This document shows, piece by piece, positions 4,216 to 49,160 of a DNA stretch of 64,000 bases. The translations under genes and the position numbers were made by a program. The notes under the pieces are model-generated. The model saw nothing but the letters and a program-made list of their open reading frames with translations. It made no database searches and was not told where the DNA came from. The DNA is from an archaeon (lineage in GTDB: Archaea > Nanobdellota > Nanobdellia > Woesearchaeales > GW2011-AR4), in contig NZEC01000011.1 of NCBI GenBank assembly GCA_002688925.1, positions 61,695 through 125,694 on the forward strand, in the 5' to 3' direction. Positions within the stretch are counted from its first letter, which is position 1. Each line of letters starts with the position of its first letter.

Positions 4216-5076
4216 TTAAAACAGTATTATCAAACCAGCCCCAACCAGCATTATCACAGCCCCAACCAGCCTTTCCTTGATATATTCTTCCTTAAATATA
4301 AAATAGCCGTACAAAACACCAAAAATAGAGCTTGTTCTTTTAATGGATATAATATAAGGGACTATGGCAAGAGGTAATGCCAAGGCAGTGGTCATCATCA
4401 TCAGGCCAAAAAACAGCCCGGTAAAAAAGAAATTATTAAAGTTAGATTTAAGCTGCCCAAAACTTTTCCTGGATGTAAAAATTACTATTATCAGCAAAGG
4501 TACAACTACTGAAGGCAGATAAATTGCACTAATAAACAAAGGAGAGGATTTCAAAACAAGAATTTTGCCAATAGCAGAAGTTATGCTGAACAAAAAAGCG
4601 GCAGTTATCATATGCAAACATCCTTTTTCATTGAATATAAACCTAACTGGCCCTAATACACCTTTGCTTTTTTCCCTTAAATTTAAAGTATAGGTTCCAA
4701 TAACAACAAGCAGGATTCCAAAAAACCCGATAATTGTTGGCAGCTCATTCAAAATAACAAAGCTTGTAAAAATTAAAAATACTGGCGTTAAGGTCAAAAA
4801 AGGCGCAACTAAAGATAAATGAGAATTTCTTATCGCCTTTATGTAAAATATCCATGCTGCTACTTCAAATGGTATCGCAATGATTAATACAAGCCAAAAA
4901 TTAATATCAAGATCTGGTATAGGAATGAAAAACAGCAGCAATAAAACCATTGGCGCAGCAAATAAAAACCTTGACAATATCAAAATGTGGTTATCTGCAT
5001 CATGAATCTTCTTTGTAAAAACATCAGCAGTAGCCCAGAAAAATCCGCTCAACAGCGCATATAGAGCCCAAAGCAT
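4216..5076 (-). CDS. EamA/DMT-family transporter
   Basis: 286 aa, about 10 TM helices arranged as two repeated halves, typical of the drug/metabolite transporter superfamily. Confidence 0.65.
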   Translation of the reverse strand: MLWALYALLSGFFWATADVFTKKIHDADNHILILSRFLFAAPMVLLLLFFIPIPDLDINFWLVLIIAIPFEVAAWIFYIKAIRNSHLSLVAPFLTLTPVFLIFTSFVILNELPTIIGFFGILLVVIGTYTLNLREKSKGVLGPVRFIFNEKGCLHMITAAFLFSITSAIGKILVLKSSPLFISAIYLPSVVVPLLIIVIFTSRKSFGQLKSNFNNFFFTGLFFGLMMMTTALALPLAIVPYIISIKRTSSIFGVLYGYFIFKEEYIKERLVGAVIMLVGAGLIILF

Positions 5077-5772: not shown

Positions 5773-6957
5773 TTAGCCTTTGCTAAGGAATATTATTTTT
5801 CCTAAAACATCCTCAACCTTGATATTCTTCATGCACTTCTGATAATCTGTAGAGTTTTTCGAAAACAAGCAGTCAGGAACCTGCCCTTTATGCACATTAA
5901 TGCACGGGGAAAAATCGCAATTATCGCCCTTGTAAACAGCAATATTTCCTTTCCCATAAGGCCAGAATCTTTCAGGCAGGTTAGGCCCGAACAATCCAAC
6001 TGTTTTAACCTTTTGCGCAGCAGCAATATGCATCGGCCCTGAATCATTCCCAACAAACAAATTGCATTTCTCAATTAAGTAAAAAAGCTCATTCAGGTTA
6101 AATAGCCCGGCAGTATTAATTATCCTATTATTAATACCCTTGACATCTTTTACATTATCTTTAATTTTCTCTGTAATCTCATTCTCTTTTTCATTGCCGA
6201 TCGATATTATCTTGTTTTTTTTATTTTTCAATAAATTCTCAGATAGCAAAGAATAATTTTTCAACGGCCACATCCTGCATTTGGAGGATTCAGCAGCCCC
6301 CGGAGCAATACCGATAATAAAGTCTTTTTTGGATAATTTTTTTGCTTTAAAGAATTTATCAACCTTCTCCTTATCTTTTTTTGAATAGCTCAATTTCTCA
6401 AGCTTTTTTAATTTATAATTGATATTCAATTTTCTCACTAAATCAAGAAACGTTTCAGATGTATGCTGCCTGTCATTATAAATTACTTTCCCATCATACA
6501 ACCCTGCCCTTATCCCATGAGAATACCCTAATCTTGATTTTCCTGTAAAAAATGATATTATTGAAGATATGTTAAGATACTCTTCCATATCCATCACAAG
6601 ATCATATTTTTTGTAGTTTTTTAATATAAAAGACAGGATAGATAATGGATTTAATTTTAATTCAATAATCTTATCAGCATTTTTATTCCCATAGAAAACA
6701 CTGCTGTTTCTTTTAGTTGTCAAGACATCAATTTCAGATTTTTTAAATCCGCTTCTTAAGGCTTTTAGGGAAGGCAGCATAAGAATTGTCTCTCCAATGC
6801 CCCATAGCTGTATAACTAAAATTTTTTTTGCCTTCAGGTTCAAGCTTTTTTTAGAACTGAAAATACTCAAAAAGCCACATACAGCCTTACCTATATACTT
6901 ATCCAGGAATTTTATAAACTCTACTGCCATATATATCAAAGTCAAGATATAACTCAT
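5773..6957 (-). CDS. glycosyltransferase family 9 (heptosyltransferase-like)
   Basis: C-terminal FVGNDSGPMHIAAA...GLFGP motif and the overall GT9 layout. Confidence 0.75.
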   Translation of the reverse strand: MSYILTLIYMAVEFIKFLDKYIGKAVCGFLSIFSSKKSLNLKAKKILVIQLWGIGETILMLPSLKALRSGFKKSEIDVLTTKRNSSVFYGNKNADKIIELKLNPLSILSFILKNYKKYDLVMDMEEYLNISSIISFFTGKSRLGYSHGIRAGLYDGKVIYNDRQHTSETFLDLVRKLNINYKLKKLEKLSYSKKDKEKVDKFFKAKKLSKKDFIIGIAPGAAESSKCRMWPLKNYSLLSENLLKNKKNKIISIGNEKENEITEKIKDNVKDVKGINNRIINTAGLFNLNELFYLIEKCNLFVGNDSGPMHIAAAQKVKTVGLFGPNLPERFWPYGKGNIAVYKGDNCDFSPCINVHKGQVPDCLFSKNSTDYQKCMKNIKVEDVLGKIIFLSKG

Positions 6958-9146: not shown

Positions 9147-9599
9147 TCACTTCTTCTGCAATTTATCAAGCTCTTCCTCAAACCTATCCAAATCCTCAAA
9201 TTCCATATAAACAGAAGCGAACCTTATGTAAGCAACCTTATCCAGCTTCCTGAGCTTCTTTACTGTTATTTTTCCGATAATCTTGCTGTCAACCTCAACA
9301 GAGTCCCTTTTCCTTAAGTCAGATTCGACCTCATCCGCAAGCTTCTCGATTTTATCAATACTGATAGGCCTTTTTTCGCACGCCTTTAGTATTCCATTTA
9401 TCAGCTTCTGCCTTTCAAACCTCTCCCTCTTCCCGTCTTTTTTAACAACAACAATATCAGCTTCCTCTATCCTTTCATAAGTTGTAAACCTTTTATGGCA
9501 CTTTAAGCACTCTCTCCTTCTTCTTGTAGCCTCTAAATTCTCAGTTTCCCTTGTATCAATTACCTGGGTTTCCTTAAAATCACAGTATTGGCATTTCAT
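9147..9599 (-). CDS. nrdR: transcriptional repressor NrdR (zinc ribbon plus ATP-cone)
   Basis: MKCQYCDF...TQVIDTRE...RRRRECLKCHKRFTTYE zinc ribbon followed by an ATP-cone (VVKKDGKRERF...AYIRFASVY). Confidence 0.9.
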   Translation of the reverse strand: MKCQYCDFKETQVIDTRETENLEATRRRRECLKCHKRFTTYERIEEADIVVVKKDGKRERFERQKLINGILKACEKRPISIDKIEKLADEVESDLRKRDSVEVDSKIIGKITVKKLRKLDKVAYIRFASVYMEFEDLDRFEEELDKLQKK

Positions 9600-9771: not shown

Positions 9772-10542
9772 TTAAGTGTTTTTCCGAGAAACCCTGTAAA
9801 TAAAAACAACTCCAACCAAAAACATAATTATGCTCAAGATCTGCCCCATACTTAAAAAACCAATAATAAAGCCCAATTGCTCATCCGGCTGCCTGAAGAA
9901 CTCAACCGTAAACCTAAAAGCAGAATACATGACAACAAAGAGCCAGAATATAAAGCCCTTGGGCATTTTTTTATCTTTAATTACCCATAAAGTAAAGAAT
10001 ATCACTAAGTCCTTGAATGATGCATATAACTGGCTTGGATGCCTGAAGCCCTCTGCATCCTGAAATTTCATTGCCCATGGCACATTTGTAATCCTGCCAT
10101 ACAACTCCCCATTCGTAAAGTTTCCTAACCTGCCTAAAGCAAGGCCTAAAGCAAGAGGAACAACCGCAATATCCGCAAGCTCGTAAAAATGAATCTTCTT
10201 TTTTTTGCAGAATATTAAAGCAACAATAACAGCACCTATCAATCCACCATGGAAGGACAAACCGCCATTCCAAATTGCTATTATCTGAGAAGGATTATTT
10301 AGGTAAAATGGCAGGTTATAGACAAAAACATAAAAAATTCTTGCACCTAAAACAACCCCGACAATCACATACAGGATAAGATCCGCAATATCATCCTTGC
10401 TTAAAGGCAGCTCTTTTCTCTTTGCGAGATAATTGATTATAAAATAAGCAAGAACAAAGCCCAGGACAAAAAAAAGTCCATAATAGCGAATCTCAAAAGG
10501 CCCTACACTTAACAAAACAGGATCTATATTATGGATGAACAT
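9772..10542 (-). CDS. lgt: prolipoprotein diacylglyceryl transferase
   Basis: GGLSFHGGLIGAV and the signature GRLGNFTNGELYGR; multi-TM, 256 aa. Confidence 0.85.
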   Translation of the reverse strand: MFIHNIDPVLLSVGPFEIRYYGLFFVLGFVLAYFIINYLAKRKELPLSKDDIADLILYVIVGVVLGARIFYVFVYNLPFYLNNPSQIIAIWNGGLSFHGGLIGAVIVALIFCKKKKIHFYELADIAVVPLALGLALGRLGNFTNGELYGRITNVPWAMKFQDAEGFRHPSQLYASFKDLVIFFTLWVIKDKKMPKGFIFWLFVVMYSAFRFTVEFFRQPDEQLGFIIGFLSMGQILSIIMFLVGVVFIYRVSRKNT

Positions 10543-40360: not shown

Positions 40361-40523
40361 AATGGAAACTAAAACAATTAAAAACAAAATGCATTGGAAT
40401 TATAGGTTTTTTACAGTTAGTTTGAGGAATATTGTTTCTTGGCATAAGCTCATTTCATATACTGGGAAGTGTTGCTGATTTTTCTATATATTGTCTTACA
40501 ATTTAATCCCTAATAGTTACTTT

Positions 40524-40531
40524 TTTATATA
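40524..40531 (+). promoter_or_regulatory. TATA box (TTTATATA) of the tRNA gene
   Basis: Ends 22 nt before the mature tRNA 5' end at 40554. Confidence 0.6.
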
Positions 40532-40553
40532 CTCAAAAATTACTTGTTTATAT

Positions 40554-40644
40554 GCGAGGGTAGCCAAGCGGCCAAGGCGAGCGTCTCAAAATGAGCTCGA
40601 AGCTGCAACCCGCTTATTCCTGGGTTCGAGTCCCAGCCCTCGCT
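40554..40644 (+). tRNA. intron-containing tRNA, class I; probable tRNA-Cys(GCA) via a non-canonical splice (canonical 37/38 splicing would give CAA)
   Basis: Acceptor GCGAGGG/CCCTCGC, D arm GCC-AAGCGGCCAA-GGC, T arm CTGGG-TTCGAGT-CCCAG, 5-nt variable loop, discriminator T, no encoded CCA. 25 nt lie between the anticodon-stem halves (7-nt loop plus an 18-nt insert). TATA at 40524-40531 is 22 nt upstream. Confidence 0.8.
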
Positions 40645-40839
40645 TTTATTTTCATAACAAAAAGCTTTTAAAAACAATAACATTACTAATAAAAATGAGA
40701 AATATCACAATTAATTTTCAAAATAATTTATTTCTGTTAGATAATACTATGTGCTGTTGTTAGTTCTGTTTCATTGTTCAAAATATAATGCCTTAGTTCA
40801 TATTTTTTAAATTTCTATAAAGTGTTTAGGAGGTAATAA

Positions 40840-41142
40840 ATGGCTATTTATTTCAATAAAGACAATAAAATTAAGCTTGAAAATCAAATAGGAGAATTGT
40901 ATGATAGGTATGATAATCAGCCTTTGGGAGTTGATGAAGCTATTTTAGAGAATATGGAATCATGCAATAATTGTACTTTATATATAAATCAAATGTCCAA
41001 AAATAAAAAAAAATACTCTGCAAAAATCATTGAAAGAAAATCCAATGGAAAAGAGCATACAATCAAAGATGGTTCAAAATATATGCCCCATAGAACTGAA
41101 ATTGGCAATTATATTGGGAATGGGTATTGCATATGTCGTTAA
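40840..41142 (+). CDS. hypothetical protein
   Basis: 100-aa ORF with a strong SD AGGAGGT 5 nt upstream. Contains CNNC and a C-terminal GYCICR. Confidence 0.45.
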   Translation: MAIYFNKDNKIKLENQIGELYDRYDNQPLGVDEAILENMESCNNCTLYINQMSKNKKKYSAKIIERKSNGKEHTIKDGSKYMPHRTEIGNYIGNGYCICR

Positions 41143-41165
41143 AATTTAGAATATAAAATACAAAC

Positions 41166-41173
41166 TTTTATTA
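41166..41173 (+). promoter_or_regulatory. BRE/TATA promoter (CAAAC TTTTATTA) of cysS
   Basis: Ends 23 nt before the ATG at 41197. Confidence 0.55.
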
Positions 41174-41196
41174 AATACAATCAGATAAGCAGTAAA

Positions 41197-42555
41197 ATGC
41201 CAATAAAATTATTCAACACATTAACCAGGAAAAAAGAAGCATTAAAGCCAATTAAAGACAAAAATATAAAATTATTCGTCTGCGGCATAACACCTTATGA
41301 TTATGCCCATATCGGCCATGCAAAAACTTATGTGCAGTTCGATGTCATAGTAAAATACCTAAGATACAGAGGATATTCTGTTTATTACCTGCAAAACGTG
41401 ACTGATATCGATGACAAAATAATCAACAGGGCAAAAGAAAAAAATATCAAGCCGCTTGATTTGGCAAGGAATTTTGAAAAAGAATACCATAAAGATATGC
41501 AGGCATTGGGCGTTGATTCTATAACTAAATATGCGCGTGCAACAAAGCACATTAAGGAGATAATAAACCAGGTAAATGCTTTAATCAAGCACGGATATGC
41601 ATATAACATAGAAAATGACGGGATTTACTTCAATCTTAGCAAATTTAAGGAATATGGCAAATTATCAGGCAGAAAATCAATGCAGGCAGAAGACGCTGTA
41701 ACAAGAATAGATGACAGCAAAAAGAAGATCAACAAAGGCGATTTTTGCCTGTGGAAAAAATCAAAAAAAGACGAGCCTTCATGGGACGACCCATGGTTTC
41801 ATAATGGAAGGCCAGGCTGGCATATTGAAGATACAGCAATAAGCGAGAAATATCTTGGCCAGCAATATGATATCCACGGCGGCGCCCGAGACTTGATATT
41901 CCCCCATCATGAGGCAGAAATAGCCCAGATGGAATCTGCCTCAGGAAAAAAGCCCTTTGTTAAATATTGGCTGCATACTGGCTTTCTTAACGTAAAAGGC
42001 CAGAAAATGGCCAAATCGCTGGGAAATTTCATCACAATAAGGGAGGCTTTAAAGAAATATGACCCTAAAGTATTAAGGTTTTTTTACCTCTCAGCCCACT
42101 ACAAAAGCCCGATAGATTTCTCAGAAGAATTATTGAAGCAGGCAAAAAATTCATTGGAAAGATTAAATGATTTTCTAAAAAAAGTAAAATACAGCAAAGA
42201 AAAAGACAACAGCAAATTAATAGAAAAAACAAAAAAGGAATTTTTTAAGAATATGGATGATGATTTTGACACTCCAAAAGCACTTGCAGTTATTTTTGAT
42301 TTTGTAAAAGAGGTAAACAAGACTGGAGGAGGGAAAAAAAGCTGCAACTTAATAATAGAGTTTGATAAAATCTTCAGTGTTTTGACAATAGAAGACCTTA
42401 AGTTAAGCCAGGAAATCAAAAAATTGATAGAAGAAAGAGAAAAAGCAAGAAAAGAAAAAGACTATGAAAAAGCAGATAAAATAAGGGATAAAATAAGGGA
42501 TAAAGGCTATATTCTTGAAGATTCAGATGAAGGTCCAAGAGTCAAAAAAATATAA
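41197..42555 (+). CDS. cysS: cysteinyl-tRNA synthetase
   Basis: CGITPYDYAHIGHAKTY (HIGH), GWHIEDTA and KMAKSLGN (KMSKS). TATA TTTTATTA at 41166-41173 is 23 nt upstream. Confidence 0.95.
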   Translation: MPIKLFNTLTRKKEALKPIKDKNIKLFVCGITPYDYAHIGHAKTYVQFDVIVKYLRYRGYSVYYLQNVTDIDDKIINRAKEKNIKPLDLARNFEKEYHKDMQALGVDSITKYARATKHIKEIINQVNALIKHGYAYNIENDGIYFNLSKFKEYGKLSGRKSMQAEDAVTRIDDSKKKINKGDFCLWKKSKKDEPSWDDPWFHNGRPGWHIEDTAISEKYLGQQYDIHGGARDLIFPHHEAEIAQMESASGKKPFVKYWLHTGFLNVKGQKMAKSLGNFITIREALKKYDPKVLRFFYLSAHYKSPIDFSEELLKQAKNSLERLNDFLKKVKYSKEKDNSKLIEKTKKEFFKNMDDDFDTPKALAVIFDFVKEVNKTGGGKKSCNLIIEFDKIFSVLTIEDLKLSQEIKKLIEEREKARKEKDYEKADKIRDKIRDKGYILEDSDEGPRVKKI

Positions 42556-46752: not shown

Positions 46753-48189
46753 CTAATAAGCCCTGGCAAAATAAACCAGAAAATTCCCTTCTTTTCCGCA
46801 ATGGACGCATTTGCCTTTTTCTTCCTTTATTATTACCCTTGAAGTTGCTCCACCTGTCTTGTCTTTAATTTCCTCCTCACACTTCACTTTATTGCAGAAA
46901 TTTGCCAAAACTAATTTTTTATCATTAATGCCTTTTTTGAATTCATTAAAGTTCTTAACCTTTATTGTATTGTCATTAAAAAACTTCTTTGATTTCCTGT
47001 AAAGATTTTCATGTATGTCTTCCAGCACCTTATCTGTTTTTTTATTGAGTTCGCTTATCTTAACAGGCTCTTTTTTTCCGTTATCCCGCCTGACTAAAAT
47101 AACCTGACTTTTCTCAATATCTCTAGGCCCTATTTCTAATCTTACAGGAACACCTTTAAGCTCCCACTCATTGAATTTCCATCCCGAGCTGTATCCTTCT
47201 CTATCATCAACCTCAACCCTTAAGCCTTTCAATTTACTTTTGATTTCATCTGCTTTTTTCAGCACTTTATCCTTAGTCTTATCAAAAATTATCGGAACCA
47301 CAACCACTTGCACCGGAGCCATTTTAGGAGGCATTACAAGGCCGTTGTCATCTCCATGCACCCCAATCATAACCCCGAGCATCCTTGTCGTGATAGCGAA
47401 CGTATTCTGCCACACATAATCCTCTTTTTCATCTTTATCCAAAAATTTTATGTTAAAAGCTTTAGCAAAGTTCTGCCCGTCTGAATGAAAATCAGGCCCT
47501 TGTATTGCCTTTCCGCTTGGCAAAAAAAGCTCTATTGAGTAAGTTGCTTCTGCTCCTGGAAACTTTTCCTTTTCTGTTTTTTTACCTATGACTCCGTATA
47601 ATGCCATATAATCATTAAGAAAATCAGAATAAATGTTCAGAATCTGCTCTTTTTCTTTCTCAGCTTCTTCTTTTGAAGCAAAAACTGTATGCCCTTCATT
47701 CCATAAAAATTCCCTTGTTCTTAATAAGGCAATGGGATGCTTAAACTCCCATCTTACTATATTGTTCCATTGGTTCAGCCTTAAAGGTAGATCTCTCCAG
47801 CTCCTTATCCACTTTGCAAAGCTTTCATACATTATTGTTTCTGATGTTGGTCTTACTGCAAGCCTTTCATTTAATTTTGTATTTCCAGCATGAGTAACCC
47901 ACGCAACCTCTGGATTAAAACCTTTTACATGGCTTTCTTCTTTTTTTAATAAGCTTTCAGGAATAAATAATGGAAAATAGCAATTTTTAATTCCAATTTC
48001 CTTAAACTTTTTATCAACCTCGCTCTGCACAATCTCCCACATAAAAAAAGAATAGGGTTTAAAGACCATGCACCCTGAAACAGAAGTGTAATCCGCAAGC
48101 TCAGCTTTCTGGATTACCTGTGTGTACCATTCAGAAAAATCCTCTGATTTTTTTACTGAGATTCCAAGCTTTTCTTCTTTTTTTGGCAT
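46753..48189 (-). CDS. proS: prolyl-tRNA synthetase, archaeal/eukaryotic type
   Basis: Class II motifs (RPTSET, FLWNEGHT..., GKAIQG), an anticodon-binding domain, and a C-terminal zinc domain ending ...CVHCGKEG..YFARAY. Confidence 0.95.
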   Translation of the reverse strand: MPKKEEKLGISVKKSEDFSEWYTQVIQKAELADYTSVSGCMVFKPYSFFMWEIVQSEVDKKFKEIGIKNCYFPLFIPESLLKKEESHVKGFNPEVAWVTHAGNTKLNERLAVRPTSETIMYESFAKWIRSWRDLPLRLNQWNNIVRWEFKHPIALLRTREFLWNEGHTVFASKEEAEKEKEQILNIYSDFLNDYMALYGVIGKKTEKEKFPGAEATYSIELFLPSGKAIQGPDFHSDGQNFAKAFNIKFLDKDEKEDYVWQNTFAITTRMLGVMIGVHGDDNGLVMPPKMAPVQVVVVPIIFDKTKDKVLKKADEIKSKLKGLRVEVDDREGYSSGWKFNEWELKGVPVRLEIGPRDIEKSQVILVRRDNGKKEPVKISELNKKTDKVLEDIHENLYRKSKKFFNDNTIKVKNFNEFKKGINDKKLVLANFCNKVKCEEEIKDKTGGATSRVIIKEEKGKCVHCGKEGNFLVYFARAY

Positions 48190-48205
48190 TAGGTTATCTG
48201 CCTTT

Positions 48206-49030
48206 TCATGTATATTTAAATTTTTTGGGTAAAAATAAGGTGCCTTTTGATTTACTTCTTAATAGTTCATTTATAATCATATGCTCCACACCATTTGCTA
48301 TCACTACTGGAATTCCAGCATTCATAGCAATTTGCGTTGCCTCTAACTTGGATTCCATGCCTCCTGCACCATTTTCTGTTCCAATATTAGGATTAGCGTA
48401 CCCTTTCACTTCATCCACATCTCTTGCTAAAGGTACCTTCTTTCTTTGATTGTCATATACACCATCAACACTTGTTAGCATAATAAGGAGATCTGCATTG
48501 CTATTTACAGCAACTTTAGCAGCCAATGAGTCATTGTCACCAAAAGTAATCTCTTCATTTGATACAGTATCATTCTCATTTATAATTGGTACAACATCAT
48601 TATACAATAATAATTCTAAAGTATTTTTGAAACTATCCAACCTACCACTTTTTTTATCAAAATCTTCATGTGTTAAAAGTAATTGTCCAGCTGTTATTCC
48701 ATAAGACCGCAAGTGCATTTCATATTCATGATACATACTGCTTTGGCCAATAGCAGAATAAGACTGCTTTACAACAGTTTCACTATGCTCGCCATCGTTT
48801 TTCAAATCAATTATGCCTCTTCCAGTAGCAATTGCTCCTGAAGAAACTATGATAACTTTTTTATCATATTTTTTTATTAACTCAGCAACCTGGTCCGAGA
48901 TTTCATAAATTTTTGTACTATCGAGCTTTTTATCTTCTCTTGTCAATATATTAGAACCTATTTTTACTACATATATTTCTGCTTGATTCAATAAATATTG
49001 TTGGATTTTTCCTAAATTCACTTCATTCAT
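48206..49030 (-). CDS. proB: glutamate 5-kinase (no PUA domain)
   Basis: VVKIGSNILT, IVSSGAIATGR, INENDTV and FGDNDSLAA motifs. The ORF-track N-terminal extension overlaps the tRNA and is rejected. The ATG at 49030 has SD AGGAGGT 5 nt upstream. Confidence 0.85.
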   Translation of the reverse strand: MNEVNLGKIQQYLLNQAEIYVVKIGSNILTREDKKLDSTKIYEISDQVAELIKKYDKKVIIVSSGAIATGRGIIDLKNDGEHSETVVKQSYSAIGQSSMYHEYEMHLRSYGITAGQLLLTHEDFDKKSGRLDSFKNTLELLLYNDVVPIINENDTVSNEEITFGDNDSLAAKVAVNSNADLLIMLTSVDGVYDNQRKKVPLARDVDEVKGYANPNIGTENGAGGMESKLEATQIAMNAGIPVVIANGVEHMIINELLRSKSKGTLFLPKKFKYT

Positions 49031-49035
49031 GTTAA

Positions 49036-49042
49036 ACCTCCT
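49036..49042 (-). promoter_or_regulatory. Shine-Dalgarno AGGAGGT of proB inside the 19-nt tRNA-Pro/proB spacer
   Basis: Minus strand reads tRNA...CCCCA TTTATTC AGGAGGT TTAAC ATG. Confidence 0.6.
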
Positions 49043-49049
49043 GAATAAA

Positions 49050-49160
49050 TGGGGCTGCCCGGATTTGAACCGAGGTTGTGTGGCCCCGAACCACAAGTGA
49101 TAAGTGATATTACTCCAAAACAACTATTAAATTGCTCCAACCAAGCTACACTACAGCCTC
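49050..49160 (-). tRNA. tRNA-Pro: tRNA-Pro(CGG) with a roughly 35-nt insertion in the 3' side of the D arm
   Basis: Anticodon arm TGTGG-TTCGGGG-CCACA (CGG at 49088-49086), T arm CTCGG-TTCAAAT-CCGGG, acceptor GAGGCTG/CAGCCCC (A2:C71 mismatch), discriminator A, no CCA. 58 nt lie between the acceptor and the anticodon stem where 19 are expected. Confidence 0.75.

Follow-up and report, generated by a model that had tools for sequence, protein, structure and literature searches.

Disrupted tRNA genes in archaea

Bulge–helix–bulge (BHB) introns in archaeal tRNA genes, including introns at non-canonical positions, were reportedly described by Marck and Grosjean in 2003 and by Sugahara et al. in 2008. 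The published non-canonical sites are 20/21, 22/23, 25/26, 29/30, 30/31, 45/46, 53/54, 56/57 and 59/60, and the split tRNA-Lys(CUU) of Nanoarchaeum equitans and Staphylothermus is likewise divided at 30/31 (PMC4090602). In ARMAN-2 (Ca. Micrarchaeum), the pre-tRNA-Cys(GCA) carries a 13-nt intron at 59/60, which is cleaved by an epsilon2 endonuclease, and typical alpha4 enzymes are known to cleave at the canonical position only (PMC3239211). Cleavage at non-canonical positions has been linked to alpha-beta, epsilon2 or L3-loop alpha4 enzymes in DPANN archaea (PMC3239211, PMC5829648), and the incomplete tRNA sets of DPANN genomes have been taken to point to undetected disrupted genes (PMC5829648). 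According to reviews, an archaeal tRNA gene has three introns at most (PMC4033280); the available part of a 2024 table of Asgard tRNA genes has columns for four introns and lists at most three. An intron may also have a function of its own, as in the pre-tRNA-Trp of Haloferax and Pyrococcus, where the intron is a box C/D guide RNA of the kind that follows the N+5 rule (PMC7994747).

The tRNA gene and its signals

We analysed a stretch of DNA of 64 kb (hereafter the window, whose coordinates are used throughout). The window is AT-rich (34% G+C), and the tRNA gene at 40554–40644 is G+C-rich. ARAGORN and Rfam agree on this gene and on its plus strand, as had been proposed from the sequence; the match to RF00005 runs end to end with 45.6 bits (E=1.6e-6) and contains a 20-nt insertion in the anticodon region of the alignment. 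On the unspliced gene, ARAGORN returned 'tRNA-??? (caaa)', leaving the anticodon unnamed. The original prediction also described the acceptor stem, the D arm, the T arm, the 5-nt variable loop, the 25 nt between AGCGT (40580–40584) and CCGCT (40610–40614), and the T at the discriminator position 40644, all of which are read from the sequence in the same way here. However, AGCGT and CCGCT, which it took as the paired anticodon stem, form four pairs only, because T40584 faces C40610. The features on which the following sections draw are, all on the plus strand:

40524–40531, plus: TTTATATA, a TATA-box-like sequence with its centre about 26 nt before tRNA position 1 and, from established knowledge of archaeal promoters, the putative promoter
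40554–40644, plus: pre-tRNA-Cys(GCA) gene, 91 nt, with no encoded CCA (ARAGORN, Rfam RF00005 and the sequence)
40554–40583, plus: 5′ exon, tRNA positions 1–30, comprising the acceptor 5′ strand, U8 A9, the D arm, G26 and A27–G30 (strict motif scan; identical or nearly so in uninterrupted homologs)
40576–40577, plus: 5′ strand of the outer helix, G23 G24, pairing with C32 U33 (40603–40604)
40578–40581, plus: 5′ strand of the central 4-bp helix, CGAG, i.e., tRNA C25 G26 A27 G28 (motif scan)
40582–40584, plus: 5′ 3-nt bulge CG/U, with the predicted cut at 40583/40584 (motif scan and rule check)
40584–40601, plus: predicted intron of 18 nt (UCUCAAAAUGAGCUCGAA) at tRNA position 30/31 (motif scan, deletion scan and homologous introns)
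40585–40595, plus: inner hairpin, CUCA (40585–40588), loop AAA and UGAG (40592–40595) (motif scan)
40596–40599, plus: 3′ strand of the central 4-bp helix, CUCG, within the intron (invariant in homologous introns)
40600–40602, plus: 3′ 3-nt bulge AA/G, with the predicted cut at 40601/40602 (homologs have A(A/T)/G)
40602–40644, plus: 3′ exon, tRNA positions 31–73, comprising G31, loop CUGCAAC, CCGCU, variable loop UAUUC, the T arm, the acceptor 3′ strand and U73 (motif scan, spliced product, and homologs with AGCG/GCTGCAACCCGCT)
40605–40607, plus: anticodon GCA (Cys), from ARAGORN on the spliced sequence
40644, plus: discriminator U73 (sequence; a T follows the acceptor stem in all relatives too)
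40645–40652, plus: T-rich run TTTATTTT directly 3′ of the discriminator, a likely archaeal terminator
41197–42555, plus: cysS, class I cysteinyl-tRNA synthetase (Pfam PF01406, 1.4e-116)

A mechanically called 90-aa open reading frame on the plus strand (40491–40763), which runs over the tRNA gene, is spurious.

The splice site and the BHB motif

Archaeal splicing endonucleases cut after the second base of each 3-nt bulge of the motif. This rule was applied strictly in a scan of all cut-site pairs, in which each strand had to contribute a 4-base central helix strand followed by a 3-nt bulge, with the cut placed between the second and third bulge bases; it also holds on the introns of relatives at 8/9, at 37/38 (L093) and at 59/60. 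Only one strict motif gives an 18-nt excision, its cuts falling after 40583 and after 40601. Between 40578 and 40602, two 3-nt bulges lie on opposite strands with a 4-bp helix between them, and the outer helix has 2 bp, G24–C32 and G23·U33 (one G·U), giving the strict hBHBh′ form with a short h. The minimum-free-energy fold of the precursor likewise contains the CGAG/CUCG central helix. Excision at these cuts leaves a 73-nt product with a 5-bp anticodon stem (AGCGG/CCGCU), a 7-nt loop (CUGCAAC) and a restored cloverleaf, which ARAGORN names tRNA-Cys(gca). When all 18-nt deletions were compared, the only one giving five stem pairs was that starting at 40584, which keeps U33 and the anticodon GCA. 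The strict 18-nt motif and this sole stem-restoring deletion thus place the intron at 30/31 and make the motif canonical in form. The predicted junction reads AGCG/GCUGCAAC, and the longer exon–exon sequence over 30/31 reads GGCGAGCG/GCUGCAACCCGCU.

The original prediction is therefore partly confirmed. It was right about the intron, which interrupts the anticodon stem in its 5′ strand, at a non-canonical position outside 37/38; its splice register and its class of motif, however, were wrong. The 5′ cut had been set after 40584 (31/32, or an equivalent register), and the evidence moves it to after 40583 (30/31), so that G31 pairs with C39 in place of a U31 opposite C39. Likewise, the motif had been described as relaxed and non-canonical with a 2-nt discrepancy, but one base further 5′ a strict 3-4-3 hBHBh′ motif yields both the 18-nt intron and the 7-nt loop. 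The missing or odd bulge or helix that marks a relaxed motif is not found here, where a strict 3-4-3 arrangement can be drawn and is conserved.

Taken alone, the motif is only mildly unlikely: when the 25-nt interval is shuffled, 5.9% of the resulting sequences hold some strict 18-nt motif. The weight therefore falls on the comparative evidence. By RNA energy rules, the motif conformer has −27.5 kcal/mol vs. −36.8 kcal/mol for the minimum-free-energy fold. As the motif and the mature D stem are in competition, the precursor must take an alternative fold, for which a D hairpin of GCC (40563–40565) with GGC (40570–40572) is possible.

Homologous genes with and without the intron

A metagenome scan was carried out with a pattern from the 5′ exon only (GCCAAGCGGCYAAGGCGAGCG), with nothing downstream imposed, and returned 64 loci. 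In 32 of these, AGCG runs without interruption into GCTGCAACCCGCT, with G31, exactly as in the predicted spliced product. Another 27 of the 64 carry an insert at exactly 30/31, as do two loci from genomes (L003 and L004), whose inserts occupy the same point as that of the window and differ from it in sequence. These 29 loci comprise 21 distinct inserts of 18–31 nt, all of which end in CTCG and A(A/T) directly before G31 and begin with T, A or C. The CTCG was not required by the search pattern, yet it is invariant in the 21 distinct introns. The inner helices of the homologous introns have 4–9 bp of unrelated sequence, and in register, pairing is seen in 81 of the 84 cells of their first four positions, vs. 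54, 45 and 29 of 84 when the partners are slid; positions 3 and 4 show five pair types each, i.e., they covary.

The uninterrupted relatives show what the spliced tRNA would look like. One of them (L088) is identical to the predicted mature tRNA except at three positions (70 of 73), two of which together make a compensatory pair in the T stem. In the genome locus L005, the anticodon arm AGAGG CTGCAAC CCTCT is intact. ARAGORN reports tRNA-Cys(gca) for the uninterrupted genes of L006 (which lies upstream of cysS), L012, L013, L017 and L022, and the Rfam tRNA score is 60–62 bits for the uninterrupted homologs vs. 45.6 for 40554–40644. The gene with its identical intron occurs in four independent assemblies (L001, L091, L106 and L109), comprising the ENA contig ena:ERZ27286378:k119_162041 and three metagenome loci (L091, L106 and L109).

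The neighbourhood is conserved as well. The cysS gene, which the original prediction named as the downstream neighbour, starts 553 nt 3′ of the tRNA gene, and of the 64 metagenome loci (L082–L145), 26 likewise have a cysS homolog just 3′ of tRNA-Cys and in the same orientation. The order recurs in genome loci, among them L003, L004, L005 and L006. This arrangement is kept while CysRS identities range from 43% to 99%, which makes the locus orthologous across deep divergence. The CysS protein of the window is 63–78% identical to those of Woesearchaeota/Nanoarchaeota-type DPANN genome bins, which places the host among these archaea.

Several other observations were made in the window. Genes typical of bacteria, namely a family 9 heptosyltransferase (5773–6957), NrdR (9147–9599) and the prolipoprotein diacylglyceryl transferase Lgt (9772–10542), are accompanied by the archaeal markers Spt5-NGN, L10e and SepF. 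Two tRNA genes lie directly upstream of their cognate synthetases, tRNA-Cys/cysS (40554–42555) and tRNA-Pro/proS (46753–49160). A sub-threshold Rfam scan of the window returned only the tRNA-Cys and a match to CRISPR-DR22 at 4734–4771, inside an EamA transporter gene, which at 27.3 bits (gathering threshold 50, E=0.22) is almost certainly due to chance.

Identity of the tRNA and competing readings

The discriminator U73 is a classical identity element of CysRS, whereas Leu tRNAs have a long variable arm (class II) and A73. The gene fits the former: GCA stands in a 7-nt loop with U33, the T at 40644 supplies U73, the 5-nt variable loop is of class I, and the orthologs include recognised tRNA-Cys genes. 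Taken with the restored arm and the covarying introns, the best explanation, in which we have high confidence, is a DPANN tRNA-Cys(GCA) gene with an 18-nt intron (40584–40601) at 30/31, spliced at a strict BHB motif to a 73-nt tRNA. The original prediction was thus right in preferring Cys(GCA) to Leu(CAA) and Trp(CCA), as the spliced loop CUGCAAC, the ARAGORN call and the GCA of the orthologs all attest; it had also observed that 18-nt registers yielding CAA, CCA and GCA all exist arithmetically, which is confirmed here.

Because of the palindrome GAGCTC, two BHB registers are available, and the same tRNA-Cys(GCA) could be spliced one base further 3′, with the intron at 40585–40602 (or shifted equivalents), a relaxed GAGC/GCTC motif and U31 opposite C39. 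The helix of GAGC (40579–40582) with GCTC (40595–40598) does exist, as the original prediction had drawn it, with bulges GTC and GAA and cuts at 40584/40600 (inner 3, outer 3), and removal of 40585–40602 leaves the same loop and the same anticodon, for which ARAGORN also calls Cys. However, the strict cuts at 40584/40600 take out 16 nt and leave a 9-nt loop, so that an ad hoc shift of 2 nt is needed to reach 18, and the intron 40585–40602 leaves a U:C mismatch at 31:39, against the G31 of all uninterrupted homologs. In addition, of 18 distinct introns, that of the window itself is the only one in which GAGC/GCTC pairs fully, while CGAG/CTCG is invariant. This register is accordingly quite improbable. 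The 16-nt excision was rejected: taken literally, it produces a 75-nt molecule whose loop has 9 nt and which ARAGORN labels 'Ala(tgc)'.

A decaying or unspliced pseudogene, in which the insert is a lesion and another locus supplies tRNA-Cys, is about as unlikely. A second tRNA-Cys gene may lie elsewhere in the genome, outside the 64-kb window, and the neighbouring hidden tRNA-Pro(CGG) gene of the window strain, described below, has a suspicious 7-nt duplication. Against this, all four stems of the tRNA-Cys are perfect after splicing, the geometry of the insert is exactly what endonuclease cleavage requires, and covarying introns sit at the same site in 21 distinct genes from lineages whose CysRS is only 43–49% identical. 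The gene also keeps its conserved place upstream of cysS together with its TATA-like and T-run signals, and ARAGORN, Rfam and the sub-threshold Rfam scan find no other tRNA-Cys in the 64-kb window.

A tRNA-Leu(CAA) with a canonical 37/38 intron (40591–40608) is extremely unlikely. Removal of this segment does leave the loop CTCAAAC arithmetically, and ARAGORN, when given the unspliced gene, offered '?(Leu|Phe)(caaa)' as a raw guess. However, the strict scan of all cut pairs finds no motif with cuts at 40590/40608, as CTCA at positions 32–35 has no partner 5′ of the 3′ cut, and the U:C mismatch would stay in the anticodon stem; canonical splicing was rejected as lacking a supporting motif and leaving this mismatch. 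The 5-nt class I variable loop (UAUUC) and U73 conflict with the long variable arm and A73 of Leu tRNAs, and GCA is found in all orthologs, with or without an intron, so that the comparative data contradict this reading. A class II-like drawing by ARAGORN, which takes AAGC/GCTT as the variable arm, with a 4-nt 'anticodon' and G·A pairs, is contradicted by the orthologs too. Finally, tRNA-Trp(CCA) by removal of 40588–40605 has a probability close to nil: this 18-nt register gives the loop CTCCAAC, but the strict scan finds no motif for its cuts, the U:C mismatch is kept, and CCA occurs in no ortholog.

Proposed maturation

The following pathway is proposed for tRNA-Cys(GCA). Transcription would start under the TATA-like TTTATATA about 26 nt upstream and end at the T-run after U73, giving a 91-nt precursor in which the intron CUCG captures C25–G28 as the central helix; the D hairpin of GCC (40563–40565) with GGC (40570–40572) can free G23–C25 for the motif. 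The splicing endonuclease would then cut after the second base in both bulges, leaving G30 and G31 to be joined by an RtcB-type ligase. CCA would be added, and the CysRS whose gene starts 553 nt downstream would charge the 73-nt class I tRNA with U73. No EndA or RtcB gene was found in the 64-kb window when about 70 of its open reading frames were compared with Pfam. With a strict motif, an enzyme of broad specificity is in principle not needed, and an intron at 30/31 with such a motif places no demand for unusual endonuclease specificity on the 40554–40644 gene.

Introns at four sites in the relatives

Across the orthologous tRNA-Cys genes, introns are found at 8/9, 30/31, 37/38 and 59/60 in almost every combination. 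The 8/9 intron has a GAGG/CCUC or CCUU helix, and the 59/60 intron a UUCG/CGAA-like helix. All four introns occur together in six distinct complete genes (L085/L125, L086/L105, L089, L099, L111 and L118), whose precursors are 182–261 nt long and each splice in silico to a valid 73-nt tRNA-Cys(GCA); where the flanking sequence suffices, most of these genes lie upstream of cysS. These at least six genes exceed the maximum of three quoted in reviews, but four introns may not be a record. Such genes easily escape detection: Rfam gave no match to the multi-intron genes of L003, L097 and L101. Over-long tRNA matches of 87–118 nt were also seen near cysS in L094 (1345–1455, minus), L025 (2297–2383), L028 (1645–1762) and L022 (6884–6978), and are presumably further intron-containing genes.

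The 37/38 intron, which the window gene lacks, is 41–51 nt long and conserved; it occurs in L002, L004, L010, L085, L086, L090, L098, L099, L103, L108, L111, L114, L118, L128, L130, L132, L134 and L136. Its general layout is GCAGC-N3-NUGA-(stem and loop)-(G/A)AU-GA-...-GYUGC. A strict motif was sought for this long intron and rejected, as only 2–3 of the 4 central pairs form, and its motif is therefore relaxed. The two stem pairs beside the GA bases covary (GC:GC, UC:GA, GU:AC and AC:GU), and several of the loops are of the GNRA type, suggesting that the element has K-turn geometry. GCAGC is complementary to the exon bases G31–C35, with a spacing that puts C32 at N+5; it also forms the inner helix of the intron with GYUGC. 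The element could be a putative L7Ae-binding or half-guide element. The idea of a guide is nevertheless speculative, because GCAGC is engaged in the inner helix and a guide of 5–6 nt falls well below the usual length.

These observations can be joined in a tentative proposal, which we regard as possible, if somewhat short of probable: the window gene would be the minimal state of a dynamic intron mosaic in DPANN tRNA-Cys, and the K-turn and antisense element of the 37/38 intron could direct 2′-O-methylation of C32. If this is true, the tRNA-Cys family would be a natural system in which to follow intron gain and loss and intron-borne guides outside Crenarchaeota and Euryarchaeota. In any case, the 64 metagenome loci and several genome loci make the presence or absence of introns at four sites testable within one orthologous gene.

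A second hidden tRNA gene

The window contains another disrupted tRNA gene, which ARAGORN and Rfam both missed, the latter even at E≤1. Its features are:

49160–49050, minus: tRNA-Pro(CGG), with the anticodon arm UGUGG-UUCGGGG-CCACA at 49095–49079
49140–49110, minus: predicted D-loop intron of 31 nt, cut after G19 (strict BHB motif)

The motif consists of the helix of GCUU (49146–49143) with GAGU (49115–49112) and a 10-bp inner helix. An amino-acid-kinase gene and proS (46753–48189) are located downstream of the gene, mirroring the arrangement of tRNA-Cys and cysS. In a strain variant (L149, 1396–1662) the motif is retained, with G–C for G·U; the three additional bases all fall in the hairpin loop, and the gene of this variant splices to a normal 73-nt tRNA. 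In contrast to L149, the window gene carries a 7-nt tandem duplication of TATCACT in its 3′ exon (49096–49109, minus), as a result of which its product would have 80 nt and an oversized D-loop. Both strains share an A2:C71 mismatch in the acceptor stem. The tRNA-Pro gene of the window may be impaired or decaying. Apparent homologs on viral contigs (L146 and L147) were dismissed as chance matches. The open reading frame called for the kinase (48206–49123, minus) overlaps the tRNA gene; it is probably overcalled by 31 codons, with the real start at an ATG near 49029, after AGGAGG, in line with the 274 aa given by gene callers.

Comparison with known systems

Set beside the published non-canonical BHB introns, the tRNA-Cys intron of the window is alike in its 3-4-3 motif with flanking helices, its place at the listed position 30/31, its shortness and the cloverleaf restored by its removal. 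The host differs, being a Woesearchaeota/Nanoarchaeota-like DPANN archaeon, whereas most published cases come from Crenarchaeota/Thermoproteales; the isoacceptor here is Cys, and the motif is strict, while many of the published non-canonical introns are relaxed.

The intron of the ARMAN-2 tRNA-Cys offers a close parallel, as both genes are DPANN tRNA-Cys(GCA) genes with a short non-canonical intron that standard predictors miss or mis-call. However, the ARMAN-2 intron lies at 59/60 with a relaxed hBH motif, in contrast to the strict motif at 30/31 in the window gene; an intron at 59/60 is also found among relatives of the window gene, where TTCG pairs with CGAA in a helix. The split tRNA-Lys(CUU) shares the use of 30/31 as a processing junction by way of a BHB motif, but it is made from two separately transcribed half-genes joined in trans, whereas the window gene is contiguous and its intron lies in cis. 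The pre-tRNA-Trp guide, in turn, resembles the 37/38 intron of the relatives, with its K-turn-like element and its complement to the anticodon loop putting C32 at N+5; the putative guide of the relatives differs in having 5–6 nt in place of the usual 10–12 nt and one D′/C′-like pair only.

Standard tools mislabel the window gene ('tRNA-???' in ARAGORN) or miss its multi-intron relatives, and Rfam also passes over the tRNA-Pro of the window; DPANN genomes can therefore seem to be without tRNA-Cys or tRNA-Pro. The 30/31 position has already been published, the ARMAN-2 tRNA-Cys has an intron of its own and disrupted DPANN genes have been noted before, so that the finding is of a known kind: the feature is an ordinary, easily mis-annotated archaeal BHB intron, and its value is that of a correct annotation and not of new biology.
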